From the NCBI GenBank assembly GCA_947631745.1, contig CANRMM010000001.1:1367-65366 (forward strand): a DNA stretch of 64,000 bases, written 5' to 3'. Below the pieces are notes generated by a model. It had not been told where the DNA came from. It was given only the letters and a program-made list of their open reading frames with translations, and made no database searches. This document shows, piece by piece, positions 772-50,702 of the stretch (positions within the stretch are counted from its first letter, which is position 1; every line of letters begins with the position of its first letter). The DNA comes from an uncultured Clostridia bacterium (lineage in GTDB: Bacteria; Bacillota; Clostridia; TANB77; CAG-508). The position numbers were made by a program, and so were the translations under genes.

Positions 772-838
772 ATATTTAATTTTCTAAGTATTACCGCATA
801 CTGACGCTGTAACTCACTTCGTTCGAACAGCCTCAGCA

Positions 839-865
839 GCTTGGCGATACCCCAATATTTAATTT
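839..865 (-). repeat. 27-bp direct duplicate of the first 16 nt of tRNA-Gln plus 11 nt of its upstream flank (pseudo-tRNA fragment).
   Basis: gcttggcgataccccaatatttaattt occurs at 756-782 and again at 839-865. The 14-bp gctgtaactcactt is also duplicated (806-819 and 866-879). Confidence 0.6.
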
Positions 866-921
866 GCTGTAACTCACTTATATATAATATCATATTTTTT
901 TCAAAATAACTACTATTTTTA

Positions 922-962
922 TAAAAAATTTAAGCAGAGTAATAATAATCACTTACTCTGCT
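922..962 (-). terminator. Rho-independent terminator of eno.
   Basis: 11-bp perfect inverted repeat AAGCAGAGTAA/TTACTCTGCTT followed by a T-run on the minus strand. Confidence 0.6.
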
Positions 963-983
963 TATTATATTTATAATTTCATT

Positions 984-2291
<1,308 letters not shown>

Positions 2292-3136: not shown

Positions 3137-4669
3137 TTATGCCCTTTCTATTAAACTTTCTCCAGTCATTTCCTCTGGTTTTTCCAATTCTAATATATCT
3201 AACATAGTTGGCGCCAAATCTGCTAGTTTTCCCTCTTTTAATGTAACATCATCAATTCCTACTAACATTAATGGTACAGGATTTGTTGTATGAGCCGTAT
3301 GTGGCTCTCCTGTCTTATAATCTATCATTTGTTCAGCATTTCCATGATCAGCAGTAATTATTAGAGCACCGTTTTTTTCTTTAATTGCATCTACTACTCT
3401 TTGAACACATTCGTCAATCTTTTCAATTGCTTTTATTGCCGCTTCTAAGCTTCCAGTGTGCCCTACCATATCAGGATTTGCATAATTTAATATAATAACA
3501 TTATATTTTTCAGATTTAATAGCATCTACTACTTTCTGAGTTACTTCTTCAGCACTCATTTCTGGTTGTAAATCATAAGTTTCTACCTTAGGTGATGGTA
3601 TTAATATTCTATCTTCTCCAGGATATTGTTTTTCTTCTCCACCGTTAAAGAAAAATGTAACATGAGCATATTTTTCTGTCTCCGCAATTCTTAGTTGTGT
3701 TAATCCCTGCTTACTAATATATTCTCCAAAAGTATTTTTTAGTTCTTGTGGTTTAAATGCAATATGCACATTTGGAATTGTCTCATCATATTGTTTAAAA
3801 CATACATAATATAGCTCCATTTTTTTAGTTTCAAATTCATTAAAATCTGGATCTACTAATGTCCTTGTAATTTCTCTTGCCCTGTCTGGTCTAAAATTAT
3901 AGAAAATAACAGAGTCGTGATTTTCTATTTTTGCAATTGGCTCATCTTTTACACAAATAACCGTTGGTTCTACAAATTCATCAAATACTTCTTTTTGATA
4001 AGATGCTTCAATTGCTGAAATTGCTGAACTAGCTTTATTTCCTACTCCATTCACTAATGCATCATAAGCTTTTTGAACTCTTTGCCATCTCTTATCTCTA
4101 TCCATACTATAGAATCTGCCTGAAATTGTTGCTATTTTCCCTACACCTTTTTCCTTCATTTTTTCTTCCAATTTAGAAATATAACCTTCAGCAGATGCAG
4201 GTGGCGTATCTCTACCATCTAAGAAACAATGTACATATACATCTTCAAAATCTTTCCTTTTTGCTAACTCCAAAAGAGCATACAAATGACGAATATGGCT
4301 ATGAACCCCTCCATCTGAAAGCAAGCCTAATATATGTAATTTTGAATGATATTTTTTACAATTTTCGATTGCTTCTGTTAGTTCTGATACACTAAAAAAA
4401 TCTCCATCTTCTATTGATTTTGTAATTCTAGTTAAGTCCTGATATACAATTCTTCCAGCACCTATATTTGTATGTCCTACTTCTGAATTTCCCATTTGTC
4501 CTTCTGGTAATCCTACTTGCATACCACTAGTATGAATAATAGTTGTAGGACATGTTTTCATTAGTCTATCAATATTAGGTGTCTTCGCAAGTTTAACTGC
4601 ATTTCCCTTTTCATTCTCATTAATGCCAAATCCATCTAATATCATTAGCATTGTCATTTTTTTGTTCAT
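3137..4669 (-). CDS. gpmI: 2,3-bisphosphoglycerate-independent phosphoglycerate mutase.
   Basis: 510 aa, typical iPGM sequence and operon position. Confidence 0.95.
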
Positions 4670-14326: not shown

Positions 14327-14360
14327 AAGAATGTTAAATAACATTCTTTCCCTTTTTTCT
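14327..14360 (+). promoter_or_regulatory. Leader hairpin with downstream T-tract, possibly an attenuator.
   Basis: AAGAATGTT-aaat-AACATTCTT perfect stem followed by tcccttttttct. Lies between the promoter and the RBS of the 14445 gene. Confidence 0.4.
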
Positions 14361-14444
14361 CATACAAGAGGTGGAATTCCTAGCAGTCCCTTTTGTATGT
14401 TTACATATATAACTTTTGGCTCAATGTTTAAGGAGGTTTGTACA

Positions 14445-15662
14445 GTGAAAAACAAATTTCGGAGGCTTATGTGCCTCATCCTGACCCTGACCATGATGCT
14501 GTCCCTTGGGACTAGTGCTCACGCTCTGTCCATTGTGGACGACACCGATTCTGATTCCGATTCCGACATTCCTACTATTGTTGTAGATGGAGAATACACT
14601 ATCATCACCCCTGACTATGTTCTCGTAGATTCTTCTACTGGCGAAATCATATTTTTGGTTTCGTACGAGAATCTCTGCCAATGCATTCCTGTAATTGCCG
14701 AGCTTCCTCGTGATATTTTGGGAGATGCTCCCTACGACTTAGCTTATTGGGCTTCGATTTACGCCAAGGACGTCTATTTTGAAGATGGTTGTCTTTACAT
14801 CATCAATTATGGTAGTACTGATGGAGGTAACCTTTGGGTTCCAGATGATGATCCCTCTGATAATGATTCCAATGATAATAATTCTGATGATGGTGATCTT
14901 TGGATCCCTGATGATGACGACGACACCATTCCTGTTCTTCCGCTCCCTGAGCCGGAAAACAATAGTAACAATGACAGCAATAATAATAGTACTGGAAATG
15001 GTACTAACAATCCAACTAATCGGCCTACTGATGCCGACACATTAGCTGTTGTGTATGTAAATGGAGTACGTGTAACTGGCGTCAACGTTTATGTTAGGAA
15101 CGCCTTCTCAAAGGACAATTCCGGCACAGCATTGATTTTCCTTCCTTCTAATGATATTCCTGCTCTCTTTCCTAAAGAGACAGAAAACACATTTTTCAGT
15201 GAAGGATATGAAGAGTCCCGCCTGGAAGATTGGGCAGAGCGCTATGATTACAAGCTTGTAACCTATGGCAATAACGTTTTTCTAAACAACAACGGAGAGA
15301 CTCCGGGGTTGCTGAGACTAAACGGAACGCAAGTTGACTGTCAGTACTGTAGCGCAACTGTAAAATCTCCTGGTGTCACATTTGTTCCTTTAAAGATAGT
15401 TTCAGAATATTTTGGGTGTGTTACTGAATGGAGTCCTGAATATCCTAAGCGAGTAGTCGTCAGAAGAGATGGCTCAACAATGATACTCTGGATTGGTAAC
15501 ACAACTTATTGGGTTGATGGCACATACAAGCAAATAGAAGTTGCACCTTTCGTACGTAACGATACCACTTTAGTGCCCATTCGCATTATTATTCAAGAAT
15601 TAGGCTATAATGTCAAGTGGTCTGTAGAAGATGGCATCTGCATAGTAGAAATTACAAACTAA
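14445..15662 (+). CDS. Secreted protein with an Asp-rich low-complexity region and a C-terminal copper-amine-oxidase-N-terminal-like domain.
   Basis: GTG start 8 nt after AAGGAGG. Signal peptide KNKFRRLMCLILTLTMMLSLGTSAHA. About 45% GC against a roughly 28% GC background. Confidence 0.6.
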   Translation: MKNKFRRLMCLILTLTMMLSLGTSAHALSIVDDTDSDSDSDIPTIVVDGEYTIITPDYVLVDSSTGEIIFLVSYENLCQCIPVIAELPRDILGDAPYDLAYWASIYAKDVYFEDGCLYIINYGSTDGGNLWVPDDDPSDNDSNDNNSDDGDLWIPDDDDDTIPVLPLPEPENNSNNDSNNNSTGNGTNNPTNRPTDADTLAVVYVNGVRVTGVNVYVRNAFSKDNSGTALIFLPSNDIPALFPKETENTFFSEGYEESRLEDWAERYDYKLVTYGNNVFLNNNGETPGLLRLNGTQVDCQYCSATVKSPGVTFVPLKIVSEYFGCVTEWSPEYPKRVVVRRDGSTMILWIGNTTYWVDGTYKQIEVAPFVRNDTTLVPIRIIIQELGYNVKWSVEDGICIVEITN

Positions 15663-21340: not shown

Positions 21341-21439
21341 AATATTCTTACCTCTCTATATGGTTTTATCTTTAATAATTAAACACAATCAGAGGCAAAC
21401 AGCAATTGATTTTGCCACCTGTCCTCTGATAATTTTATA

Positions 21440-22783: not shown

Positions 22784-23218
22784 CTAAATCACCTCTGCCT
22801 TTCCTCCTAAAGCTTCTATTTTTTCTTTAGCAGCTTTAGTAAATCTTACAGCCTTAACTGTTAATTTTTTATCTAATTTACCAGTTGCAAGGATAACGAT
22901 TCCATCGTTTGCTTTGCTGATAATTCTATCTTTAATTAAAGTTTCTGCTGTAACTTCTTCGACTGTTGATTTATTAAGCATTGTTAAAGTTACTTCTGTA
23001 TAATTTCTAGTATTGATATTTGTAAATCCTCTTTTTGGTAATCTTCTATATAATGGTGTTTGACCACCTTCGAATCCACGTCTAACTCCTCCACCAGATC
23101 TTGCTTTTTGACCTTTATGTCCTTTTCCAGAAGTTTTTCCTAAACCTGAACCAATACCACGTCCCACTCTTGTTCTCTTTGTGGCTACCTGTGCTGGTTT
23201 TAATTCGTCTAATTTCAT
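22784..23218 (-). CDS. rplO: 50S ribosomal protein L15.
   Basis: 144 aa, L15 similarity. Confidence 0.9.
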
Positions 23219-23240
23219 TTTGAGTTACACCTCCTTATTA

Positions 23241-23738
23241 TTATAAAATTTCGTCTACTTTTTTTCCTCTTTTTTTAGCAATTTGCTCTGCAGTTTTCAT
23301 TGCCTTTAATCCTTCAAGTGTAGCATATACTACATTTCTTGGATTATTTGTTCCAATAACTTTTGTTCTAATGTCTTTATATCCAGCAAGTTCTAGAACA
23401 GGTCTTACACTACCACCTGCTATAACTCCAGTACCTTCTTCAGCTGGTTTTAATAAAACATTAGCACTACCAAATTTACCAACATATTCATGAGGTATAG
23501 TTGTTCCAACAATAGCAACTTCTATTAAATTTTTCTTAGCTTCTTCTATTGCTTTCTTTATAGCATCTGGAACTTCAGCTGCTTTACCATTACCTACACC
23601 TACATGACCATTTTCATCGCCAACAACAACAACAGCACTAAATCTAAAAGTTCTTCCACCTTTTACAACTTTTGCAACTCTGTTAATTGCTACAACTTTT
23701 TCTTTTAATTCAGATGTATTTTCTGATTGCACTTTCAT
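23241..23738 (-). CDS. rpsE: 30S ribosomal protein S5. Start at the ATG (MKVQSEN...) preceded by AAGGAGG.
   Basis: [26 protein letters not shown]... matches S5. Confidence 0.9.
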
Positions 23739-23820
23739 TTTCCTCCTTATCTTAAACAATGTTTGCAAAAAATCTTACACTTTATTTTTGCTTTACTAAT
23801 GTTTGCAAAAAATCTTAGAT

Positions 23821-23870
23821 TTTTTGCATCTAATATCCGTAAGCTCACTTCGTTCGCACGGCTATTAGAA
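23821..23870 (-). repeat. Stem-loop repeat element, copy B, in the L18-S5 spacer. It includes the rplR stop codon.
   Basis: tttttgcatctaatatCCGTaagctcacttcgttcgcACGGctattagaa. See findings. Confidence 0.5.
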
Positions 23871-24224
23871 TTCCAAGCCACCTTCTCTTGCGGCATCAGC
23901 TAATTCTTGAACAACTCCGTGGTAAATATATCCACCTCTATCAAAAACAACTGATTTTATTTTCTTTTCTCCTGCTCTTTTAGCAATTAAAGCTCCTACT
24001 TCCTTAGCTGCTTCTTTATTAGCATGCTTTGTTTTTACTTCTTTATCTAATGTTGAAGCTTGTGCTAAAGTTTTTCCAGCTACATCATCAATAATTTGTA
24101 CATATAAATTACTATTACTTCTATATACACAAAGTCTTGGAGCTTCTGCTGTTCCAGAAACTTTTCTACGTACTCTTAAATGTCTTCTATCTCTTTCTGC
24201 CTTTCTATCAATTTTTGTAATCAT
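23865..24224 (-). CDS. rplR: 50S ribosomal protein L18.
   Basis: 119 aa, L18 similarity. Confidence 0.9.
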
Positions 24225-24297
24225 TTTTTTCTCCTTTCTAACCAGAGTAACAGCCCTGATTTACTTCAATTACAATTACTTATTTATATTTCAGGTT

Positions 24298-24837
24298 TTA
24301 TTTCTTACCTGCTTTACCTTCCTTACGTCTAATATGCTCTTCTGCATATTTAATACCTTTTCCTCTATATACTTCAGGTGGTCTCTTTGTTCTTACAACA
24401 GCTGCTGTTTGACCAACCAATTCTTTATCAATTCCTCTTACAGTAATGTGGTTAGCGTCTGGAACATCAAAAGTAATACCTGCTGGTGGATCCATCTCTA
24501 CTGTATGTGAATAACCTAAGTTCATTACTAATTTATTTCCCTTCTTTTGAGCTCTATAACCAACACCATTGATTTCTAAATCTCTTTTATATTCATTTAC
24601 AACACCTTGAATCATGTTGTTAATTAATGTTCTTGTTAAACCATGTAAACTTCTATTTCCTGGTTCATCATCTGGTCTCTTTACAGTGATAACATTACCA
24701 TCTAAAGTAACTTCCATGTTTTTATGTAAGTCCTTTTCTAGTGTACCTTTTGGACCTTTTACTGTAATATGATGTCCTTCTATTTTAACTTCTACACCTT
24801 GTGGTACATCAATAGGTTTATTTCCTATTCTTGACAT
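24298..24837 (-). CDS. rplF: 50S ribosomal protein L6.
   Basis: 179 aa, L6 similarity. Confidence 0.9.
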   Translation of the reverse strand: MSRIGNKPIDVPQGVEVKIEGHHITVKGPKGTLEKDLHKNMEVTLDGNVITVKRPDDEPGNRSLHGLTRTLINNMIQGVVNEYKRDLEINGVGYRAQKKGNKLVMNLGYSHTVEMDPPAGITFDVPDANHITVRGIDKELVGQTAAVVRTKRPPEVYRGKGIKYAEEHIRRKEGKAGKK

Positions 24838-24856
24838 CTTGGTTTTCCCTCCTTTT

Positions 24857-25255
24857 CTACCATACGTAAGCTAGAACTTCTCCTCCTAGGCCTTCTGCTC
24901 TTGCTTCTTTGTCTGTTTTTATTCCTTTTGATGTTGAAATAAGTGCAATACCTAAACCATTTAAAACTTGTGGTAATTCATCTTTTGATGCATACACCCT
25001 TAATCCTGGTTTACTAATTCTTTTTAATCCATCAATAACTCTTGCACCTTTTTCATCATATTTTAAAGTGATTCTTAAAATTCCTTGATGAGAATCATCT
25101 ATTTCTTCAAATGATGTAATATATCCTTCTTTAAATAGAATATCAGCAATAGCTTTCTTCATATTTGAAGCAGGTACATCAACTGTTTTATGTTTTGAAC
25201 TATTTGCATTTCTAATTCTTGTTAGCATATCTGCTATTGGATCAGTTGTATTCAA
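24857..25255 (-). CDS. rpsH: 30S ribosomal protein S8.
   Basis: 132 aa, S8 similarity. Confidence 0.9.
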
Positions 25256-25359
25256 ATCTTTTCCCTCCTTTTTAATAATTTGCCATATTAATTTAACTAA
25301 AACTAGTGTATCTTTATGTAGCTTGACAACACAAGACTCTGGTTCTTGTTAAATTAGAT

Positions 25360-25545
25360 TTACCAGCTAGCTTTCTTAACTCCAGGAATTTCTCCCTTAT
25401 GAGCTAATTCTCTAAAGCATACACGGCAAATTCCAAATTTTCTAATATATGCATGTGGTCTTCCACAAATTTTACATCTATTATATTCTCTTGTCTGATA
25501 TTTTTGTGTTCTTTGTTGTTTTACTTTTAAAGATTTTTTAGCCAT
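25360..25545 (-). CDS. rpsZ: 30S ribosomal protein S14 type Z (zinc-binding, 61 aa).
   Basis: [25 protein letters not shown]. Confidence 0.85.
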
Positions 25546-25566
25546 TTTTTTCTCCTTTCATTTTAA

Positions 25567-26106
25567 TTAGTTTTTAAATGGCATTCCTAATAGAGATAAC
25601 AATTCTTTAGCTTCTTCGTCTGTTTTAGCAGTTGTTACAAATATGATATCCATACCTCTAATTTTATCAATTTTGTCATATTCGATTTCTGGGAAAATTA
25701 ATTGTTCTTTAACTCCCATTGAATAATTTCCTCTACCATCAAACGAATTTGTTGAAACTCCTCTAAAATCTCTAACTCTTGGAAGTGCTACATTAAATAA
25801 TTTGTATGCAAAATCATACATTTTATCTTTTCTTAAAGTAACTTTACATCCCATGTTGATTCCTTCTCTTATTTTGAAGGCTGCTATTGCTTTTTTGGCC
25901 TTTGTAATAATTGGTTTTTGACCAGTTATTAAAGTCAAATCATTAATAGCATTTTCCAATGATTTAGGATTATCTTTTGTGTCTCCTAAACCTATATTAA
26001 TAACTATTTTTTCTAGTTTTGGAATTTCCATTACTGATTTATAGTTAAATTTTTTCATTAACGCTGATTTAACTTCTTTTTCATATTGCTCTCTTAATAT
26101 TTCCAT
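25567..26106 (-). CDS. rplE: 50S ribosomal protein L5.
   Basis: 179 aa, L5 similarity. Confidence 0.9.
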
Positions 26107-26133
26107 AAGTCTAAATAGACCTCCTTCCTTCTA

Positions 26134-26442
26134 TTACTTCAATTTTGCTCCGCATTTTTTACAAACACGTACTTTTTCATCTTTCTCTATTTTATATCCA
26201 ACTTTTGTTGCTTTATTGCATTTTGGACATACAACATTTACTTTGCTACTATGAATAGCACATTCAACTGGTATAATACCACTTTCATCGCCTTGTTTTC
26301 TAGCTTTTATATGTTTTTTTCTAGCATTAATGCCTTTTACAATGATTTTTTCTGTTTTTGGTATTACTTCTAAAACTTCACCAGTTTTTCCTTTATCATT
26401 TCCTGATAAAACTTTAACTGTATCTCCCTTTTTGATTCTCAT
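26134..26442 (-). CDS. rplX: 50S ribosomal protein L24 (variant with four Cys).
   Basis: MRIKKGDTVKVLSGNDKGKTGEVLEV..., C-terminal CPKC...CKKC. Confidence 0.85.
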   Translation of the reverse strand: MRIKKGDTVKVLSGNDKGKTGEVLEVIPKTEKIIVKGINARKKHIKARKQGDESGIIPVECAIHSSKVNVVCPKCNKATKVGYKIEKDEKVRVCKKCGAKLK

Positions 26443-26610
26443 TTATTATTTTCACCTCTTTAATCTTAGATTTTATGAACTCTTTTTGATTAGATGCAAC
26501 TACTTGTAGCTTAAAGAAGCTACAACTTCCGTTTCACTTTTTTGAAGCTACGATTAATACTTTGTATTGCTCATCCAGCCTAAGGGCTGTCTTCGCTAAC
26601 AAATTTTAAG

Positions 26611-26675
26611 TTTTCGCATCTTTTATCCGTAACGCTCTAATGTCTACTAGACATTATCGCTAACGGCTTAAAGAA
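26611..26675 (-). repeat. Stem-loop repeat element, copy C, in a 225-nt L14-L24 spacer. It includes the rplN stop codon.
   Basis: ttttcgcatcttttatCCGTaacgctc TAATGTCTA c TAGACATTA tcgctaACGGcttaaagaa. Confidence 0.5.
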
Positions 26676-27036
26676 CTTCTGGGGCAAGTGAAAGAATTTT
26701 CATATAATCTTTTTCTCTTAATTCTCTTGCAACAGGTCCAAATATACGAGTTCCTCTTGGTGTTCCATCTTCTCTTATAATAACAGCTGCATTTTCATCA
26801 AATCTTACATAAGAACCATCTGCTCTTCTAGTAGGTTTCTTTGTTCTTACAACTACAGCTTTTACAACATCACCTTTTTTTACAACGCCACCTGGTGTTG
26901 CAGTTTTAACAGAAGCAACTATGATATCACCGATTCTAGCATATTTTCTATAAGAACCACCTAGACATCTGATACACATAATCTCTTTAGCACCAGTATT
27001 ATCAGCAACTTTTAAAATTGTTTGTTGTTGTACCAT
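26668..27036 (-). CDS. rplN: 50S ribosomal protein L14.
   Basis: 122 aa, L14 similarity. Confidence 0.95.
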
Positions 27037-27057
27037 GATAATATTTCCTCCTTTAAA

Positions 27058-27321
27058 TTATTTGATTTCTGCCTTTTCTAGTATTTCAACAACTCTCCAT
27101 CTCTTATCTCTTGATAGAGGTCTAGTTTCCATTACTTTTACTTTATCACCGATTTGACAAGCATTTTCTTCGTCATGAGCTTTTAACTTATATGTTCTCT
27201 TTTGAACTTTTCCATAAGTTTTATGTTTCTCACTTGTTTGAACAGATACTACAACTGTTTTATCCATTTTATTTGAAGAAACAACGCCTATCATAGTTTT
27301 ACGAAGATTTCTTTCCTCCAT
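27058..27321 (-). CDS. rpsQ: 30S ribosomal protein S17.
   Basis: 87 aa, S17 similarity. Confidence 0.9.
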
Positions 27322-27335
27322 AATTTTTCTCCTTC

Positions 27336-27536
27336 CTATTTATTTTCTGCCATCTTTCTTTCTGTTAATACAGTTTGTATTCTTGCAATATCCTTCTTCA
27401 CTTCTTTTATTTTCATAGGATTATCTAGTCCATGCGTAGCTAGGCTAAATCTTAATTTGAATAATTCAGATTTTAATTCTCCTAATTCCTTTTCTAAATC
27501 TGGTGAAGACATTTCTTTGATTTTATTTATCTTCAT
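27336..27536 (-). CDS. rpmC: 50S ribosomal protein L29.
   Basis: 66 aa, L29 similarity. Confidence 0.85.
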
Positions 27537-27966
27537 CTAATTCACCACCTACTTCAGTTTCCTTCTTTACAAATTTACACTTAACAGATAGTTTATTTGC
27601 AGCTAATCTTAAAGCTTCTCTTGCAACATCTTCTGTAACATCTGCAATTTCAAACATTATTCTGTCTGGCTTTACATTTGCAACCCAGAATTCAACAGCA
27701 CCTTTACCTTTACCCATACGAGTACCAATAGGTTTTCTTGTAATTGGTTTATCTGGGAATATTTTAATCCAAACTTGACCACCTCTTTTGATATAACGTG
27801 TCATAGCAACACGGGCAGCCTCTATTTGATTTGACGTAATTTGTCCAGCTTCAAGAGATTGTAATCCATATTCTCCATCTGTAATTCTGTTTCCTCTTGT
27901 AGCTCTACCTCTATTTCTACCTTTTTGTTGTTTTCTATATTTTGTTCTTTTTGGTATTAATGGCAT
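27523..27966 (-). CDS. rplP: 50S ribosomal protein L16.
   Basis: 147 aa, L16 similarity. Confidence 0.9.
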
Positions 27967-28628
27967 TATTTGTCTCCTCCTTCCACTACATTTTTCTTAG
28001 TTGGAAGAACCTCTCCTTTATATATCCAAACTTTTACACCGATTTTTCCATATGTTGTATCTGCTTCTGCAAATCCATAATCGATATCAGCTCTTAAAGT
28101 TTGAAGAGGTATAGTACCTTCTTTATAAAATTCAGTTCTAGCCATATCTGCTCCACCTAATCTTCCAGATACTGAAGTTTTAATTCCTAATGCACCTGAT
28201 TTCATAGTTTTTTGCATACATTGTTTCATAGCTCTTCTAAAAGAAACTCTCTTCTCTAATTGACCAGCTATATTTTCTGCAACTAATTGAGCATCTGTAT
28301 CAATATTTTTAACCTCAACGATATTTAAGTTAACTTCTTTATTAATCATTTTTTCCAATTCAGCTTTTAAAGTTTCAGCTAAATTTCCACCTTTACCTAT
28401 AACGATACCAGGTTTTGCTGTATAAACATTTACCTTTACAAATTTAGCAGTTCTTTCAATTTCTATTTTAGAAATTCCTGCTAGATATAATTTTTTCTTA
28501 ACATACACACGAATCTTATGATCTTCTACTAGGTAATCACCAAAATCTTTTGAATCTGCATACCATTTTGAATTCCAATCTTTAATAATACCTACTCTTA
28601 ATCCATGTGGATCCATTTTTTGTCCCAT
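27966..28628 (-). CDS. rpsC: 30S ribosomal protein S3.
   Basis: 220 aa with KH domain, S3 similarity. Confidence 0.95.
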
Positions 28629-28657
28629 TTTGTAAATGTCCTCCTTTCTTTCCTCTA

Positions 28658-29008
28658 TTAATCTCTCTCTTTTAATACTATTGTAATATGACTTGTTCTT
28701 TTTCTAACTCTAACAGCACTACCTTTTGCTGCAGGTCTAATTCTCTTTAATGTAGGTCCTTGATTTGCATATATTTCAGACACATATAATTTTTCATGAG
28801 TCATATTATGGTTGTTTTCAGCATTTGCAATAGCTGATTTTAATAACTTTTCAATGATTTCTGATGAAGCTTTTGGAGTATATTTTACAATTGCTAATGC
28901 TTCATCAACATTTTTCCCTTTAATTAAATCTGCTACAATTTTGACTTTTCTACTTGAAATTCTAGCATATTTAAGGGTTGCTTCTGCTCTTGGTATTATC
29001 TCTTCCAT
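28658..29008 (-). CDS. rplV: 50S ribosomal protein L22.
   Basis: 116 aa, L22 similarity. Confidence 0.9.
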
Positions 29009-29045
29009 TTCTTTCCTCCTTGCTATTTTTTAACGATACTACTTC

Positions 29046-29327
29046 TTATTGTTTTGTAGTTGTTGTCTTATCTCCTGAGTGTCCTTTAAATGTTCTAGTA
29101 GGTGCAAATTCACCTAATTTATGTCCTATCATTTCTTCTGAAATATATACAGGCACATGTTTTCTACCATCATGAACAGCGATTGTATGACCAACCATTT
29201 GTGGATATATTGTAGAAGCTCTTGACCAAGTCTTAAGTACTTCTTTTTTTCCACTCTCGTTCATAGCTTCAATTCTTTTTAATAATTCAGGTGCTACATA
29301 TGGTGCCTTTTTAGTTGATCTTGACAT
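29046..29327 (-). CDS. rpsS: 30S ribosomal protein S19.
   Basis: 93 aa, S19 similarity. Confidence 0.95.
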
Positions 29328-29340
29328 TTAGTTTCCCTCC

Positions 29341-30168
29341 TTATTTTCTTCTCTTTACTATAAATTTATTTGTATTTTTATTTTTAGCTCTTGTCTTATA
29401 TCCTAATGCTGGTTTGCCCCAAGGTGTTAATGGTCCTGCGTGTCCTACTGGTGCTCTACCTTCACCACCACCATGAGGGTGATCTACTGGGTTCATTACA
29501 GAACCTCTTACAGTTGGTCTAACTCCTAAATGTCTAGTTCTTCCTGCTTTTCCCAACTTAACATTTTCATGATCTTGATTTCCAACAGTTCCAATTGTTG
29601 CTTTACAAACTGACATTACTAATCTCATTTCTCCTGATGGAAGTCTTACGTGTGCATATTTTCCTTCCTTAGCCATTAATTGTGCTTCCTGTCCAGCTGC
29701 TCTTACTAATTTTGCACCTTGACCTGGATTTATTTCTATATTATGAATCATAGTACCAACTGGTATATTTTCAATTCTCATGCAGTTACCTGGTTTGATA
29801 TCTGCTTTATCACTAGATACTACTTTATCACCATCTTTCAATCCGACTGGTGCTAAGATATATGCTTTTTCACCATCCTCATATTGGATTAATGCAATAT
29901 TACTGCTACGATTTGGATCATATTCAATTCCCATTACAGTAGCTGTCATATCTAATTTATTTCTTTTAAAATCTACAATTCTATATTTTTGTCTATTTCC
30001 TCCACCTTGGTGTCTTACAGTTATTCTACCATAACTATTTCTTCCTGAATTTTTCTTCTTTGTTGCAAGCAATGATTTTTCAGGAGTTTTCTTTGTTACT
30101 TCTTCGTAAGTAGATACTGTCATATTTCTTCTTGATGGAGTATATGCTTTAAAATGTTTCATTCCCAT
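29341..30168 (-). CDS. rplB: 50S ribosomal protein L2.
   Basis: 275 aa, L2 similarity. Confidence 0.95.
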
Positions 30169-30279
30169 TGTTTTATTCTCTCCTTTTTTGGTATTGACGG
30201 ATTCTTTCCTGCTCCGTTTGCAGATATTCTTTATTATCTGGGTTCTTTCCCAATATTTTTATTACAATTCAATACTAAT

Positions 30280-30627
30280 CTATGCTCCCATAAATTCATC
30301 AATTGAATCTTTATATTTCTTTGTTACTTTTGTTTCTTTTCCACCTTTTGACATGTATGTCTTTTCAGATGCGTTTGTATCAATTGTAACAATTGCTTTT
30401 TTCCAGTCAGAAGTTTTTCCAACATTTCTTCCAACCCTTTTTTCTTTTCCTTTTACAGTTACAGTATTTACATTTAATACTTTTACTTCAAAAAGTTTTT
30501 CTACTGCATTTTTTATATCAATCTTTGTAGCCTTTCTGTTTACTTCAAAAGTGTACTTTCCATCTTGAATCCCATCACTACTTTTTTCAGTAATCACTGG
30601 CGCAATAATAACATCTTCTGCAACCAT
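30280..30627 (-). CDS. rplW: 50S ribosomal protein L23 (with a C-terminal extension).
   Basis: 115 aa, L23 core. Confidence 0.85.
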
Positions 30628-31250
30628 TATGCGTACACCTCCTCTAATTTCTTAACAGCATCTAAAGTTACAACAAGATTTTTATATTTTAATAAATCAT
30701 ATACATTCATTGTGTTTACTAGAGTTGTTTTAACTCCTTCAATATTTCTTGCTGATTTTTGTACTGTTTCATTTTTCTCAGGTAAAAGTATTAATGTTTT
30801 TCCTTCTACTTTTAAGTTTGTTAATGCTTTTGCCATTTCCTTTGTCTTAATTTCTTTTAATGTTAAACTATTAACAACTACTAATTCTTTTTCTAATACT
30901 TTTGAGCTTAAGCAAGATTTAATTGCTAATCTCTTTTCTTTCTTATTTACTTGGTATTTATATGAACGAGGTTTTGGTCCTAAAGCAATACCACCTTTAA
31001 TCCATTGTGGAGCTCTTATACTTCCTTGTCTTGCTCTACCTGTTCCTTTTTGTTTCCAAGGTTTTCTTCCACCGCCACGAACTTCAGCTCTAGTTTTTGT
31101 ACTTTGTGTACCTTGTCTTTGATTAGCTAAAAAGTTAACTAAAACACTATGTACTACAGCTTCATTTGGTTCGATACCGAAAATTTCTTCTTTTAAGTTA
31201 ACTGTGTCAACTTTTTTACCTTCCATATCATATACGTCTATTTTAGGCAT
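30627..31250 (-). CDS. rplD: 50S ribosomal protein L4.
   Basis: 207 aa, L4 similarity. Confidence 0.9.
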
Positions 31251-31268
31251 TTCGTTTCTCCTCCCTTT

Positions 31269-31901
31269 CTATTTTGATTTAACACTTGATTTTATTTTTA
31301 GTATTGCACCTTTAGCTCCTGGTACACTACCTCTTACTAATAATACATTTTTATCTAAATCTACTCTAACAACTTCTAGATTTAAAATTGTAATTGTTTG
31401 AACTCCCATGTGACCTGGTAATCTTTTACCTTTATAAACTCTACCTGGTGTTGAAGTTGATCCCATTGAACCTGGTCTTCTGTGATACATAGAACCATGT
31501 CCCATAGGTCCTCTTGTTTGTCCATGACGTTTAATAACACCTTGGAATCCTTTTCCTTTTGAAGTTCCTTGTATATCTACTTTTTCTCCAGCAGTGAAAA
31601 TGTCAGCTTTTAATTCATCACCAACTTTTACTTCTTCTACTGAATCTAATCTAAACTCTCTTAAATATTTCTTAGGTGTAACATTTACTTTTGTAAAATG
31701 TCCTTTTTCTGGTTTATTAACTTTCTTTGCTTTTACTTCTCCAAAACCTAATTGGATTGCATTATAACCATCTGTTTCTTCTGTTTTAACCTGTGATACT
31801 ACACAAGGTCCAGCTTCGATAACTGTTACTGGAATAACTTTTCCTGATTCATCAAAAATTTGAGTCATTCCAATTTTTTTACCAATTAATCCTTTTTTCA
31901 T
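31269..31901 (-). CDS. rplC: 50S ribosomal protein L3.
   Basis: 210 aa, L3 similarity. Confidence 0.95.
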
Positions 31902-31962
31902 TTTTCCTCCTATTGGCTGATATTTTATATTTCATCTATTTTCAAAATGTTATATCAGCATT

Positions 31963-32010
31963 GGTGCTGAGGTTGTTAGGCTCTGCCGTTACAACGTCAG
32001 TATGCAAATG
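31963..32010 (+). repeat. Stem-loop repeat element, copy D, in a 184-nt S10-L3 spacer. Orientation is opposite to copies A-C.
   Basis: gtgctgaggTTGTtaggctctgccgttACAAcgtcagtatgcaaatgc. Flanks match the reverse complement of copy A (794-840). Confidence 0.5.
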
Positions 32011-32085
32011 CCTTAGCATTTGTATTCCTTTTGCATAAGTTGACTGTAAAACTCGATGCTTTTTTTCAAAAGCCTCTCGTTAACA

Positions 32086-32418
32086 CTACAACTTAATCTC
32101 TATATCAACACCTGCTGGCAAATCGATTTTCATCAAACTATCAACAGTTTTTTGTGTTGGATAAAGAATATCAATAACTCTTTTATGTGTTCTCATTTCA
32201 AATTGTTCTCTTGAATCTTTATCTTTATGTGGAGAACGCAAAATTGTTATTATTTCCTTTTGTGTTGGTAATGGAATAGGACCTGAAACCTTTGCTCCTG
32301 TCTTTTTAGCAGTATCTACTATCTTTTCAGCAGACTGTTCTAAAACTACATGATCATAAGCCTTTAATCTTATTCTGATTTTTTCACTTGTTACCGTATT
32401 TTCCTTCTTTGTTGCCAT
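32086..32418 (-). CDS. rpsJ: 30S ribosomal protein S10.
   Basis: 110 aa, [10 protein letters not shown]..., S10 similarity. Confidence 0.9.
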
Positions 32419-32687
32419 TAAAAATTCCCTCCTTAAATATATTTTATTTTAGGTCGGAAGCTATAAACGCATCCTGGTGTTTCTATATTTACCAATATTA
32501 AAACCCAAATTCGCATGAAAAACTTGGGATAAGTCTGCATTTATAATAACCATTTATTCATTAAATAAATGGCTTAACTTACCGCCCTGGTCTTAGCCAC
32601 GACATACTCTGTAAGAGTTCCCTCCATCAAAGCTTAACACTTTGTGTAGCCACATCTTACTTCATCGCTAAATAACATGCTCTCATA

Positions 32688-32715
32688 TTATATAACAATA
32701 AATCAGTAAAGTCAA
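32688..32715 (-). promoter_or_regulatory. Candidate sigma-A promoter of the S10 operon (TTGACT-16nt-TATAAT) with a roughly 270-nt leader.
   Basis: Minus-strand ttgactttactgatttattgttatataat. The long structured leader is consistent with the L4-autoregulated S10 leader (inference). Confidence 0.45.
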
Positions 32716-32880
32716 CTGTTTTGTTCATTTTTATTACACTTTTATGACATTTTTGTAACAATTCTTCTTACAAAGTTAATTTTAAAAATAACATAAAAAA
32801 GAATACCTTATTTGAATATTTAAATCAATTTTCATTTAAAGTATTCTTTTTATTTTTTATTTGTATATTGTACCTATCAG

Positions 32881-33000
32881 ATTTTATTTTCCCTTTTTTT
32901 ATATTTCTTAGGCTTCTAAGTACAACCTATTTAAGTCTGTCCCTCAAGTGACAAAAGTGTCACTTTAAAGAACGTCCCCAAAGTGACAAAGTGACAAATC
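32881..33000 (+). repeat. REP-like repeat, copy 1 (about 120 bp), containing GTGACAaaagTGTCAC.
   Basis: Near-identical to 43240-43385. Shares the GTCCC(C)AAGTGACA...GTGACAAAGTGACAA core with 50703-50766 (reverse) and 51706-51783. Confidence 0.6.
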
Positions 33001-41304: not shown

Positions 41305-41329
41305 AATAGTTCAAACCATGGCGAAATCT

Positions 41330-41428
41330 AAAAATATCACCTGATACAACTTCTCTTTCATAATATAGCTGTCAATCTATAGCAAAATTTAAAAATATCA
41401 CCTGATACAACTTCTCTTTCATAATATA
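41330..41428 (-). repeat. Two 38-bp perfect direct repeats (41330-41367 and 41391-41428) straddling the stop codon of ORF 41358..43232.
   Basis: aaaaatatcacctgatacaacttctctttcataatata occurs twice. Copy 1 encodes YYEREVVSGDIF in the ORF frame; copy 2 is in a shifted frame. Confidence 0.6.
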
Positions 41429-43232
41429 ATTCTTCGTTGTCTGCTGACCAAGTTAATCCTTCCCAATCGCATTCATAATAATAACCTCTACCAAAATTAA
41501 CCGACGTTCTTTCTTGTGTAGTCACTTTAACACTTCTAGCATTCAAAGGAACACTAATCTTCTTACTTTCTGGTTCAGAGCTCCAATTAAATGCTCCAGG
41601 TGTAAAAGGAATTGATATTGTTTCACTCGATAATTCACTTCCATCACCATCATACCAAGTCACTAAATATTCAAATGGAGCATAAACAACACTATCCCAG
41701 TCATTATTGTCTTCGGCCCAAAGTCCCCTCGCCAAACCATTCAAAACCTCGCTATACTCACCTTTAATTGGAAACCCTCCATCCCAGGTTCTACGCAATT
41801 CATATTTTTCTCTATATTCTGGACTACACTGTTTCGACCATTTTTCAGCCAAAGGATCGTAAACACTTTTGTAATACAAATCCTCACAAAATGCTTCCAT
41901 AACGAGCGACATCAGCTCGTCACCGGCGTCAGCCCCCTCCTCGATTACATCCATAATATCATAGTATAGTTTGAAATCATGGTAATAATATGCATTATTC
42001 ATACATTTTTGAATGTAATCCTTGGTAAATAATTCGGAATCACCACCATAAGTTACAGTCGTAGCATCTTTAAGGCACGAAACCACATAAGCACTAAAAT
42101 CACCATTGAAATGTTCATTAATAAAATCCTGTTCATGCGAAGAGACGTAATCGTCGACCAAACCTTCCCAACCATCACAGTACTCCCAGTCCAAGTTTAT
42201 TAAATAGTCATCCAAAATAACTTCTCTTTCTATTATAATATATGGCGTTACATCTGCTTCTACCTCCGGTAATTTTTCTCCTTTTGGTATTACTGGTTTT
42301 GGAGTTCCTGTTAACTCTCCTATTCTATTTATTATTATTTCCTTTGCTTCTACATCTCCTTGTGTTACTGTGTATGTATATTCTATTGTTGCTGTTCCGT
42401 TTGGCTCTAATGAATCTATAATAAATTCTCCGTTCTTGCAACTTACCCCTTCACTCATACTTGATACTTTTATTTCTTCATCTCCTGGAAAATATGTTCC
42501 ACTTCCTGCTGTTAGCGTATCTGGTATATGAATATTCTTCATTGTTACTTTGCCTGTATTTTTTACCGTTATTGTCCATTCTATTTCTTCATTCGCTATA
42601 TAATATTCTCCATTTTTTGGAGTTGATGTTACCTCTTTTGTTATCTCAAAATTTGAATTGTCATTTTCTACTATGTTCTTTATTCCATCTACTAATATTC
42701 CTAATTCTCTATTTTCTCTTGTATCTTTTCCATAATACATTACTCTATATGTTTTGCCTTCATCTGTTTCTGCTAACTTTATTGTTTCTTCTGTTTTTGC
42801 TACCTTTGTTATACTTCCTGTCCCTGGTGCTACTTCTTCTAATTTATATACATCTGTACTTCCTTCTCCATTTCCTAATGCTAGCCTTGTTCCTGCTAAT
42901 GTTTCAACATTTATTTTATATACTCCATCTGTTCCTATATCTTCAACTATTCCTCTATCTTGCAAATAATCTATTAAACTTGTTTCCTCTTTTCCAACCC
43001 TTCCTGCCCAGTAATCCGAATATGCCATCTGTATCCTTTCCCACACTGTTGCATGAGTATGCTCTACTTTCCCTCTATCTGCACTTGAAATTAATCCATT
43101 CTCTCCAAATACTGCATTAATACTTATTACTGCCAAAATAATTAATATTACTATTGTTACCACTAATGCTATTAGTGTTATTCCTTTATGCTGTTTCAGC
43201 ACTCCTTTTATTTTCCCTGTTCTTTCTTTCAT
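41358..43232 (-). CDS. Secreted protein with prepilin-like N-terminus, conserved paralogous domain, DUF11-like repeat and a compositionally foreign C-terminal module.
   Basis: 624 aa. KG|ITLIALVVTIVILIILAVISINAVFG. About 160 aa shared with ORF 46127..47371 (about 90% nucleotide identity at the 5' end). TITVKNTGKVTMKNIHIPDTL is a DUF11-like motif. Confidence 0.6.
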   Translation of the reverse strand: MKERTGKIKGVLKQHKGITLIALVVTIVILIILAVISINAVFGENGLISSADRGKVEHTHATVWERIQMAYSDYWAGRVGKEETSLIDYLQDRGIVEDIGTDGVYKINVETLAGTRLALGNGEGSTDVYKLEEVAPGTGSITKVAKTEETIKLAETDEGKTYRVMYYGKDTRENRELGILVDGIKNIVENDNSNFEITKEVTSTPKNGEYYIANEEIEWTITVKNTGKVTMKNIHIPDTLTAGSGTYFPGDEEIKVSSMSEGVSCKNGEFIIDSLEPNGTATIEYTYTVTQGDVEAKEIIINRIGELTGTPKPVIPKGEKLPEVEADVTPYIIIEREVILDDYLINLDWEYCDGWEGLVDDYVSSHEQDFINEHFNGDFSAYVVSCLKDATTVTYGGDSELFTKDYIQKCMNNAYYYHDFKLYYDIMDVIEEGADAGDELMSLVMEAFCEDLYYKSVYDPLAEKWSKQCSPEYREKYELRRTWDGGFPIKGEYSEVLNGLARGLWAEDNNDWDSVVYAPFEYLVTWYDGDGSELSSETISIPFTPGAFNWSSEPESKKISVPLNARSVKVTTQERTSVNFGRGYYYECDWEGLTWSADNEELYYEREVVSGDIFKFCYRLTAIL

Positions 43233-43239
43233 TTATTTT

Positions 43240-43385
43240 CCCCTTTTCTTTTATATTCTTAGTTTTCTAAGTATAACCTATTTAAGTCTACTTATTTAAT
43301 TTTATTCCTTTAAGTCTGTCCCTCAGGTGACAAAAGTGTCACAAATAGGAACGTCCCCCAAGTGACAAAGTAACAAAAATGACAG
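43240..43385 (+). repeat. REP-like repeat, copy 2 (about 145 bp, with an internal tttaagtct duplication).
   Basis: See 32881..33000. Lies between the start of ORF 41358..43232 and mutS2. Confidence 0.6.
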
Positions 43386-46126: not shown

Positions 46127-47371
46127 TTATTCAGTCCATATTAAAGGATCTTCCTTTGTTCCCTCTCCTTGTACTCTATCAATAGCTGTTGGATTAACTA
46201 TAAAAATTGGTCTTAACTTATTCGTAGCCACATTGCTTCTATAAAAATTTTTATAATAAAAATTTGAATATATACTAAAGCCAGCAATCGTCTCCGGATT
46301 ATAGGTTCTACTTAGAAAATATTCAAGGCCATAATATTCACCTGCACCAGACGTCTTTTGTGCTCTAGAAGACACCCAATAATTTGATTTACTAGTTGTA
46401 TCGAAAATATCAACTCCCAATGATTTCATATTTTGCATCTGTAAAAAATCAATATTAGAATTGCTATCTACATCTTTAATCATTGTATCACCAACTGTCC
46501 ACTTTCCTGAAGTTGCTTTTTCTGCTAAATTTACTAAATCTTTTGATTCAGAATATGGATCATTTGGCACACTTCCTACACATCTTGCACTAGTTACATA
46601 CATATTATTACTTTCATTTACATATTTTTTTGCCTCATTATTCAATGTTTCTATAGCACTATTATATGATTCTACTGCTAATTGCATTTGTTCTGAAGTT
46701 CCACCCTGAGTTAAATCACAATCATTTCCAATCCCAATGTTTTCTCCTACTACATCTGTTGCTATCATTTGTATTCCATAATTAGTTTTATTTGTTTTAT
46801 TATATTCTTCGTCATACATTACTACGCACTCTATTGTTGTACCATTATATGGCAATTGCACATATTTTCCTACTTTGAATTCACTTGCAGTTTGAGGCAA
46901 ATCTTTTTTCTTATCTCCTTCTAGCACTCCCAAGTTTCTAGGTCCACTTTCTCCATAATAATTTACACTATATGTCTTATCTCCATTTGCTTCTACGGTT
47001 TCTTCTAATTTATATACATCATTTTGGTCATCTGTTCCATTTCCTAATGCTAACTTTGCTCCTGCTAATGCTACTGTGTTTATTTTATATCCTCCATTAC
47101 TGGTCTGTTCTGTTCCTATTATTTCTTTTTCTTGTAAATATGATATTAAATCTTTTTTCTCATTTGCTACTTTCCCTGCCCAGTAATCTGAGTATGCCAT
47201 CTCCATTCTTTCCCATACTGTTGCATGTGTATATTCTACTTCTCCTTTTTCTGTACTTGAAATTAACCCATTTTCTCCAAACACCGCATTAATACTTATT
47301 ACTGCCAAAATTATTAATATCACTATTGTTACAACTAATGCTACTAAGGTTATTCCTTTTTCTCTTTTCAT
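46127..47371 (-). CDS. Secreted protein with prepilin-like N-terminus, paralog of 41358..43232 with an unrelated C-terminal region.
   Basis: 414 aa. MKREKG|ITLVALVVTIVILIILAVISINAVFGENGLISS... RBS AGGAGGA immediately downstream of ppiB. Confidence 0.6.
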   Translation of the reverse strand: MKREKGITLVALVVTIVILIILAVISINAVFGENGLISSTEKGEVEYTHATVWERMEMAYSDYWAGKVANEKKDLISYLQEKEIIGTEQTSNGGYKINTVALAGAKLALGNGTDDQNDVYKLEETVEANGDKTYSVNYYGESGPRNLGVLEGDKKKDLPQTASEFKVGKYVQLPYNGTTIECVVMYDEEYNKTNKTNYGIQMIATDVVGENIGIGNDCDLTQGGTSEQMQLAVESYNSAIETLNNEAKKYVNESNNMYVTSARCVGSVPNDPYSESKDLVNLAEKATSGKWTVGDTMIKDVDSNSNIDFLQMQNMKSLGVDIFDTTSKSNYWVSSRAQKTSGAGEYYGLEYFLSRTYNPETIAGFSIYSNFYYKNFYRSNVATNKLRPIFIVNPTAIDRVQGEGTKEDPLIWTE

Positions 47372-50690: not shown

Positions 50691-50702
50691 TTTTCCTCCT
50701 TC

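Follow-up and report, generated by a model that had tools for sequence, protein, structure and literature searches.

Four related sequences in a 64,000-nucleotide stretch of bacterial DNA (hereafter the window) are members of one hairpin family, which apparently has not been described before. We consider it reasonably probable that all four are recent insertions of a non-autonomous, interspersed hairpin of the REP/MITE kind, one that would be spreading at the DNA level in gut Clostridia and in a few other lineages. The elements, called A to D, would have landed just after the stop codons of the ribosomal-protein genes L14 (C) and L18 (B), both in sense, behind S10 in antisense (D), and inside a tRNA-Gln gene (A). 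An earlier note on this DNA had proposed that a small mobile repeat, similar to MITE, REP or BOX elements, had invaded the ribosomal-protein operon, and that proposal is supported here by further copies of the repeat and by empty sites in relatives. Such insertions would explain the 100-400-nt, strain-variable spacers of this lineage in the S10/spc operon, whose intergenic regions are usually among the most compact and conserved in bacteria.

Four copies of one hairpin in the window

The window originates from a metagenome contig (ENA ERZ27249187, NODE_166) of a low-GC bacterium (about 29% GC in the window), and its conserved genes show about 80% DNA identity to those of MAGs labelled 'uncultured Clostridium sp.'. 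The minus strand of the window carries the S10-spc-alpha ribosomal-protein operon. To describe the family, 50 distinct copies, 49 of them from other genomes and one being window copy A, were aligned without gaps, with B, C and D left out, and a covariance model (R1) was derived from the alignment. When R1 was run over the whole 64-kb window with filters off, the top four matches were the four elements of the earlier note, each located where that note had placed it (A 61.5, B 54.2, D 19.2 and C 17.3 bits), and the fifth match had E=0.43; family members were also recovered when the other loci were scanned. The matches of A and B extend over the full length of R1, whereas in C and D both stems and the 3′ motif are matched and the tip has been replaced.

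The flanks that the four elements have in common in pairs were found to be exact, as had been claimed. The pattern TGCTGAGGYTGTT-N(8-30)-TTACARCGTCAGTATGC is matched by A and D, with two matches in the window and none in 100 shuffles, and the pattern AGCCGT-N(10-40)-TTACGGATAWWAGATGCRAAAA is matched by B and C, again with two matches in the window and none in shuffles. The nearly identical loop of A and B was recovered as a 13-mer, CGAACGAAGTGAG, that is exactly the same in both. The hairpin RNAs of all four elements folded better than shuffled controls (z -2.4 to -3.6). It is hardly credible that the similarity arose by chance in an AT-rich genome or as an assembly artefact: C and D do score only 17-19 bits and the window is a metagenome assembly, but the flank patterns never occurred in shuffles, B reached 54 bits with a model built without it, C is present in three independent assemblies and the family is abundant elsewhere.

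Element A (783-840, minus strand; R1 match at 793-840, in the training set) is a complete copy with the arms CUGCUGAGG and CGUCAGUAUGC, the canonical tip CGAACGAAGUGAG and the tail GGUAAUACUUAGA. An intact tRNA-Gln(CUG) gene, identified by ARAGORN and by the Rfam tRNA model (61 bits), lies at 697-771 on the minus strand, downstream of enolase and of element A, and the insertion point of A falls after nucleotide 16 of the tRNA-Gln gene sequence.

Element B is composed of two parts, both on the minus strand. Its first hairpin (23823-23871; E=1e-14, outside the training set) has the 5′ arm UCUAAUAG, which includes the L18 stop codon UAA, a canonical tip and the 3′ arm AUAUUAGAUGC, and it folds with -13 kcal/mol (z -2.4). 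The second module (23760-23827), delimited from the sequence, contains a perfect hairpin, GCAAAAAAUCU-A-AGAUUUUUUGC (23805-23827), followed by AAACAUUAG, together with a direct repeat of UAAGAUUUUUUGCAAACAUU (23760-23777 and 23800-23817), and it ends just before the S5 ribosome-binding site. Its layout matches that of four other loci (L030, L081, L082 and L026), and the second hairpin followed by (U)AAACAUU trails many copies, these four among them.

Element C (26614-26674, minus strand; E=0.02, fold z -3.4), which has its flanks in common with B, lies in an L14-L24 spacer of 225 nt. Its 5′ arm, UUCUUUAAG, includes the L14 stop codon and its 3′ arm is AUAAAAGAUGC; in place of the tip it carries a 9-bp helix, the inner palindrome at 26629-26647, with the GA...GA bracket kept. 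The 9-bp length of this palindrome had been given correctly, and so had the absorption of the upstream stop codons by the flanks of B and C, the L18 and L14 stops both lying within the 5′ arms. Element C was kept in three loci from independent assemblies (L002-L004), where it scored 31.3 bits.

Element D (31963-32025, plus strand; R1 match at 31963-32008, E=0.0045) is antisense to the operon and lies in an S10-L3 spacer whose length of 184 nt, like the 225 nt of the L14-L24 spacer, agrees with the earlier figure. Its arms are of the A type and its tip, GGC-UCU-GCC, is short; UAUGC comes next, and then a second hairpin (32002-32025). The element folded better on the plus strand (z -3.1) than on the mRNA strand (z -1.8).

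Structure and hosts of the family

The consensus derived from the 50 copies is nTTAAGTTAGCTGTTCGAACGAAGTGAGTTACAGATAACTTATGCAA. On the strand that carries the 13-mer, the architecture consists of a 7-bp outer stem, a G·A (or G·G) mismatch, a 4-bp CYGU/ACRG stem, the tip and (U)AUGC, so that terminal inverted repeats are present as two arms of 7 + 4 bp; the core measures about 45 nt, and when second hairpin and tail are included the length is at most about 75 nt. The 4-bp stem that the earlier note had described around a 16-35-nt loop does exist, but the full stem also includes the 7-bp outer stem and the 1x1 G·A mismatch. The region taken for a loop is likewise real, but it is itself structured, with a C-G pair, tandem G·A/A·G, an R-Y pair, a C-G pair and an RAA triloop. 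We interpret this tip as a mini-hairpin because its variation is structured and its G·A pairs are kept. While the outer stem is variable, the tip follows the formula C-GA-RC-RAA-GY-GA-G; in copies that had not been selected by pattern, CGAACGAAGUGAG was changed to CGAGCAAAGCGAG or UGAACAAAGUGAA (A-U to G-C, C-G to U-A), and the two G·A positions were retained in almost all copies that still had the tip.

Pairing was found in 91.6% of the cells of the 50-copy alignment, as against 20-42% when the partner was slid by 1-3 columns. Both sides had changed in 8 of the 14 pairs in this alignment and in 11 of the 14 in a larger one, so the compensatory stem changes seen in the four copies were confirmed and extend far wider than had been claimed. 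The proposed shuffling of modules was upheld in part: the arms do vary and the tip is the conserved part, but A/D and B/C are better described as subfamilies with different outer arms. Within near-perfect outer stems G·T outnumbered A·C by 9:1, an excess that points to the folding of one particular strand; over all pairs the ratio was an uninformative 27:18.

A one-genome-per-species collection was scanned with the pattern CGAACGAAGTGAG(N)TTACRG, an exact core of 19-20 nt, and 90 loci were obtained, against about 20 expected by chance on a rough estimate. Complementary arms surround the core in about 80 of the 90. R1 gave 107 matches in the 0.76 Mb of loci fetched, several per genome. Among the hosts are dozens of MAGs of uncultured Clostridium, Clostridiaceae and Clostridia, each genome having 3-6 copies with the exact core, as well as the cultured C. 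yunnanense, C. folliculivorans and C. zeae. The hairpin was also found in Facklamia, Globicatella, Aerococcus and Ruoffia of the Aerococcaceae, in one deltaproteobacterial MAG (6 copies), in Mailhella and in a few candidate-phyla bacteria (possibly CPR), where the element stands behind tRNA genes. In Aerococcaceae it forms one arm of a three-way-junction repeat of about 170 nt, which has 13 covarying pairs and no Rfam match.

When Rfam 15 was searched with the window and 22 loci, at the gathering threshold and at E<=5, no family overlapped any copy, and the only matches, to tRNA, T-box and OLE, were all away from the copies. A BLAST search of plasmids and phages with the two-hairpin consensus, which is insensitive to core-only matches, returned nothing, and the core pattern had two matches in viral contigs, both weak to R1 (19.8 bits). 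The A-type pattern matched once in JGI metagenomes, in a copy that is embedded in a different repeat of about 105 nt. A literature search for the tip sequence as DNA and RNA in both orientations returned only unrelated primers. The family appears to be uncatalogued, and it adds to the repeats of gut Clostridia, where REP-type elements have hardly been described.

Several known structures were compared by inspection and dropped. There is no 3-nt bulge beside the G·A pairs as in a kink-turn, the R boxes of an integron attC site do not fit, and a hammerhead or other small ribozyme core, a Xer/dif-like site and HUH-origin nonanucleotides were dismissed in the same way. A CRISPR or type III antitoxin array was rejected as well, as the sequences between the repeats are themselves repeated and no toxin or cas family was present among the gene products checked near copies; CRISPR-DR models gave one weak match only, away from the copies.

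Empty sites, duplications and nesting

The closest relative, GCA_947628735.1, is 95% identical to the window in L24 and 98% in enolase. Its operon (L002) has C, is without B, and has a D that is short of a 97-nt segment. According to the spacer alignments, this segment corresponds to 31996-32092 of the window (plus strand) and is bounded by the 6-nt direct repeat TACAAC (31990-31995 and 32087-32092); with the segment missing, the hairpin of D abuts the S10 stop codon in L002. B is absent from L002, L005-8 and L099-104. The L14-L24 spacer, 225 nt long in the window, measures only 28 nt in L099-L104, whose L24 is 88-90% identical, and no family member was found across the operon loci of relatives at this distance (about 20 kb each for long contigs). 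Altogether, the operon loci of 10 relatives contained no member except C in L002, and B and the full-length D are known from one metagenome contig only. The reverse is seen in the rbfA-nrnA spacer, where L082 has a copy and the window none.

The ribosomal-protein spacers vary in length even among strains with the same L24 protein, the L23-L2 spacer ranging from 66 to 401 nt. A lack of further copies together with conserved spacers, which the earlier note had regarded as the mark of operon-specific leaders, is the opposite of what was seen, with about 90 loci and spacers that differ among relatives. It is accordingly very improbable that the elements are regulatory leaders specific to the S10/spc operon, acting as autoregulatory binding sites of ribosomal proteins. 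Three of the four copies are indeed in ribosomal-protein spacers, and the tip resembles a linear stretch of what we take to be 5S rRNA (CCGAAC..GAAGUGA), with the genes of the presumably 5S-binding proteins L5 and L18 close by. However, that stretch is presumably not a hairpin within 5S rRNA, and 5S rRNA mimicry was set aside as a purely linear resemblance. Moreover, neither spacers nor elements are conserved at 88-95% L24 identity, D is antisense, no Rfam ribosomal-protein leader matches, and the same hairpin is found beside genes for PGI, GatC, a helicase-nuclease, a serine recombinase and response regulators and beside tRNA genes.

At the tRNA-Gln site, all features of which are on the minus strand, a direct repeat of 27 nt, the longest flanking repeat found, is present in two copies. 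The proximal copy (756-782) comprises 11 nt upstream of the tRNA and tRNA-Gln nucleotides 1-16 and is part of the intact gene, and the distal copy (839-865) leaves a fragment of the tRNA 5′ end ahead of element A. The tRNA-Gln site of the closest relative (L108) has only one copy of the repeat, the distal one being absent, and it is empty, reading plainly ...ATATAAAGTGAATAAAAAAT|tRNA (also given as ...ATATATAAAGTGAATAAAAAAT|tRNA). From the comparison of the two sequences, we regard the distal copy as a target duplication, by which an intact tRNA-Gln gene would have been recreated. Beyond it, a partial copy consisting of the 3′ half of the hairpin, AAGUGAGUUACAGC (866-879), joins the promoter/leader of the tRNA at an AAGUGA that was already there. 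In the comparison of the window with L108 it appears as an 8-nt patch, GUUACAGC, that copies the 3′ stem of the hairpin, and it is the sole 3′ half without a 5′ half in all the sequence examined. AAGTGA microhomology is present at the junction of element A.

The same layout, in which a 5′ tRNA fragment is followed by the element and the complete tRNA, was found again at tRNA-Gln(UUG) in L028 and at tRNA-Thr in L053. Flanking direct repeats of 17, 20, 21, 23, 24 and 27 nt were detected at six sites, three of which are tRNA genes; of the three sites with 17-24-nt repeats beyond these, at least two are outside tRNA genes. No flanking direct repeat of at least 12 nt was found at the remaining sites, and B and C have no clear target duplication. 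No known transposase fits this pattern, in which some sites have long duplications of variable length and others have none that can be detected.

The 5′ arms of B (UCUAAUAG) and C (as DNA, GUUCUUUAA) are the ends of the native genes, which read TTTCTAATAG and GTTCTATAA in outgroups that have no element; TCTAATAG and GTTCT(a/t)TAA likewise occur in such outgroups. The arm pair of C (the GTTCTTTAAG arm) recurs in L037 at the end of an unrelated gene, GatC ...KVL*, which is also encoded by GTTCTTTAA. At about 13 loci the 5′ arm takes in the stop codon of the ORF upstream. Two observations bear on whether the arm belongs to the element. The major subfamily has a conserved 5′ arm of 9 nt (TTAAGTTAG), suggesting that the arm travels with the element, whereas in tandem arrays a matching 5′ arm is present in the first unit only, suggesting that it does not. 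One possibility is that sites similar to the 5′ arm of the element receive the copies; the other is that the target is selected or copied by the 7-nt 3′ arm.

The tandem arrays are head-to-tail with periods of 58-77 nt, are present in several genomes and often lie at contig ends. Since such arrays break assemblies, the family should be of use in the annotation of MAGs. Copies are also inserted into one another. Among the interrupted copies of the family type, 8 of 10 break exactly after CGAACRAAG, at which point a new copy (TTAAG...) begins, and in a ninth the break comes one base sooner. A further two copies, located at the ends of arrays, stop after GAAGUG, and in L084 the nesting is triple. 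Because some of the composites were duplicated later, these cases amount to about 3-4 independent events.

Possible role in the transcript and means of spread

Elements B and C would be co-transcribed with the operon and would form stable stem-loops that take in the upstream stop codon and are tolerated there. A scan for intrinsic terminators over 23000-33000 detected none at B or C on the minus strand, and no promoter was predicted at B or C; the second hairpin of D was flagged on the antisense strand only. The hairpins are without a U tract. The effect of the elements on the operon is probably limited to additional stable stem-loops in the transcript. By analogy with REP, ERIC and Correia hairpins, those of B and C may protect or punctuate the mRNA.

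In co-directional gene contexts, 31 copies are in the sense and 10 in the antisense orientation (about 26:8 when duplicate loci are omitted). This bias, the excess of G·T and the tip, which is conserved across phyla and serves as an arm of the covarying Aerococcaceae element, suggest that the folded strand, possibly RNA, is under some selection and not neutral; the strand that folds could be the transcript or single-stranded DNA exposed in replication. If it were the transcript, the hairpin might mainly be a functional RNA module, with the tip as a binding or cleavage site of a widely conserved protein or RNase, copies in tRNA leaders and intercistronic spacers retained for mRNA stability, processing or stoichiometry, and spread as a secondary matter. 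We regard this as unlikely, though worth weighing. It would account for variable stems combined with a tip that is conserved in Clostridia, Aerococcaceae, delta-proteobacteria and possibly CPR, for the use of the hairpin as an arm of the Aerococcaceae three-way junction of about 170 nt with its 13 covarying pairs, for the 31:10 preference for sense, for the 9:1 ratio of G·T over A·C in near-perfect stems and for copies between a stop codon and the next ribosome-binding site within operons. A possible analogy is the Ruminiclostridium cip-cel operon, whose processing is controlled by intercistronic stem-loops (PMC10311766). Against this stand the antisense position of D and its worse fold on the mRNA strand, close relatives that do without these copies, and the roughly one quarter of copies that are antisense in co-directional contexts. 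Nesting, tandem copies and long target duplications are unexpected for a regulatory site, and there is no Rfam family and no match to a known ribosomal-protein leader. A sense bias can also be obtained by strand-specific insertion during replication, as in the behaviour of IS200/IS605 elements.

The insertion of a mobile hairpin remains the reading that we prefer, and known repeats of this kind were compared with the family. REP and BIME sequences are palindromes tagged with GTAG or CGTC and mobilised by RAYT Y1 transposases. Like the present family, they are short, imperfect, multi-copy palindromes, mostly located just downstream of coding regions and co-transcribed, with subfamilies that show compensatory stem changes and with an abundance that differs between close strains (PMC3733652). 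The CGTC-type REPs are without a dedicated transposase, and Firmicutes are not mentioned in that REP survey (PMC3733652); around the present copies no transposase was found either. In contrast to REPs, the family consensus (TTAAG...CTTATGC; nTTAAGTTAGCTGTT...TTACAGATAACTTATGC) has no terminal GTAG or CGTC tag, CGTC occurring in the A/D subfamily only inside the 3′ arm; the conserved part is the structured tip of 13 nt and not the stem; no RAYT was seen nearby when the ORFs around copies were probed; and clusters are head-to-tail and nested instead of head-to-head or tail-to-tail dimers.

BOX elements have a modular build. Together with ERIC, Correia/NEMIS, RUP, Efa and Ype, they resemble the family as non-autonomous RNA hairpins near gene 3′ ends that vary between strains, and hairpin repeats of the MITE type are thought to alter mRNA stability (PMC1590033). 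The family differs from ERIC, Correia, RUP, BOX, Efa and Ype by its much smaller core (about 45 nt), by its occurrence across phyla and by the absence of sequence similarity; no parent insertion sequence was found for it among the ORFs of 90 loci, and it has no fixed short target duplication (17-27 nt or undetectable). Tiny mobile elements of two hairpins at gene termini and in intergenic spacers are also known as the double-hairpin elements and GC clusters of fungal mitochondria, which are organellar and unrelated in sequence. The SDR sequences of cyanobacteria were reportedly termed 'very small mobile repeated elements' by Elhai et al. in 2008. By the accounts in PMC3116915 and PMC3733652, they would likewise be very small non-coding hairpins with nesting, and with a mobility recognised from filled and empty orthologous sites; they would differ in sequence, host range and size. 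Given the missing end tag, the conserved tip, the head-to-tail and nested clusters, the long variable duplications and the cross-phylum range, we class the family among small palindromic repeats and not as REP or MITE in the strict sense. Three of its traits are unusual: what is conserved is a structured tip and not the stems, copies insert into one another at a single position of the loop, and insertions into tRNA genes are accompanied by a duplication through which the gene is restored.

Clustering of the ORFs around 90 loci, with a Pfam search of representatives, brought out no recurrent transposase family, and none was detected beside any copy. A phmmer probe for Y1 transposases, with a sequence taken to be IS608 TnpA as the query, had no match in the 3026 ORFs from about 0.9 Mb of sequence surrounding copies. 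The variable long duplications, the microhomology at a junction, the nesting at one position and the tandem reiteration lead us to infer a process more like hairpin-promoted template switching, or the action of a trans-acting nuclease, than a classical transposase. The tip, with its tandem G·A pairs and C-RAA-G mini-hairpin, would fold in one strand and provide a point of breakage or template switching, and new copies would arise by microhomology-guided copying into sites resembling the 5′ arm or through an enzyme in trans. As such sites are rich in UAA and UAG, gene ends would be the targets, and at tRNA-Gln the 27-bp target duplication would rebuild the intact gene.

A bolder proposal, which we hold to be rather doubtful, is that the tip is the working part of a cross-phylum insertion system that acts on folded single strands with a re-targetable guide arm, or else that a conserved protein binds the tip and that the Aerococcaceae element, built around it, is a new class of structured RNA. 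In the former case, breakage and joining would occur at a single bond of the tip, GAAG|UGAG, and the 7-nt 3′ arm would pair with the 7 nt preceding the insertion point and in this way pick the target. Such a system, if real, would explain why copies lie exactly on stop codons and tRNA ends, why the same subfamily is found at two unrelated genes ending in GTTCTTTAA, and the homing into loops. What makes these data interesting is how the family might spread and why its tip is conserved; if a mechanism can be attached to its unusual traits, the family could serve as a tractable model for the spread of enzyme-less or trans-mobilised hairpins, or could reveal a new RNA-protein module.

One inverted pair of copies, 3.1 kb apart, was found in L021. 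It was considered as a pair of transposon ends, but this was not supported: of the three ORFs between the copies one is a deaminase and the other two match nothing in Pfam, and the copies stand beside terminator-like hairpins in the flanks of the segment. In 6-7 MAGs the gene of a large serine recombinase ends in a copy, a recurrence that looks like one mobile island with a passenger copy.

A large serine recombinase gene beside hairpin copies

A gene encoding a large serine recombinase (Resolvase + Recombinase + Zn_ribbon_recom) was found repeatedly near copies of the hairpin family, the ~45-75-nt repeat with a conserved structured tip, in several MAGs (loci L034, L053, L073, L077, L090 and L094; for example, L094 3008-4930). 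In L034, L090 and L094, the loci whose gene end was inspected, the stop codon of the recombinase abutted or overlapped a hairpin copy. This arrangement probably reflects one mobile island that takes a hairpin copy from genome to genome.

The hairpin tip in an Aerococcaceae element

The tip of the hairpin family was also observed as one arm of a multi-copy ~170-nt element of Aerococcaceae (Ruoffia, strain DSM 111176). The predicted fold of this element is a three-way junction in which 13 pairs covary, and the element had no match in Rfam. Copies were located at L064 2200-2600, L072 3260-3450, L065 3120-3310 and 6376-6570, L092 4000-4190 and L093 4105-4295; two of the copies, in L064, are arranged in tandem upstream of a T-box leader.

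Other repeats and stem-loops

A second repeat family of ~70 nt, with the pattern TGTCCCTCAAGTGACAAAAGTGTCAC...GAACGTCCCCAAAGTGACAAAGTGACAA, was present in four copies within the window, three on the plus strand (32930-32998, 43309-43377 and 51701-51769) and one inverted (50697-50765). One of these occupies the boundary between TruB and the S10 leader, part of the repeat sequence was flagged as terminator-like, and a related copy was seen 3′ of rbfA in the relative L082 (~1680-1725). A third family comprised long hairpins of 105-120 nt (CTTGYGTTGTCAA ... GTAC-N5-GTAC ... TTTCCTAGCA), which fill the L14-L24, L5-S14, L23-L2, S14-S8, L6-L18 and S8-L6 ribosomal-protein spacers of the relatives L005-L008 in both orientations, with 83-86% identity from spacer to spacer. 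Only a remnant was found in the window, in the S14-S8 spacer (25315-25337); in the metagenome match L105 (1440-1660), an A-type hairpin is nested inside a copy of the long hairpin. Stem-loops outside the hairpin family were detected in the L6-L18 (24225-24297), L23-L2 (30169-30279) and SecY-Adk (21341-21439) spacers of the operon in the window, and the L23-L2 hairpin region was kept in part among relatives.

Gene content and duplications

On the strand opposite to the operon, a 443-aa ORF (14331-15662, plus strand) showed a GC content of 42% against the 29% background. Its product carries runs rich in Asp, Ser and Asn and a Cu_amine_oxidN1 domain at the C-terminal end. The ORF looks like a recently acquired gene for a secreted or cell-surface protein. 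In the enolase/tRNA-Gln interval, the closest relative (L108) has an additional 60-aa gene with its own terminator (4417-4599), which is missing from the window (880-984). A 61-nt tandem duplication, made of two 57-nt copies with 91% identity, was observed at 41311-41428, and two segments of ~330 nt (42867-43198 and 47036-47370), 82-84% identical and separated by 4.2 kb, may represent paralogous genes.
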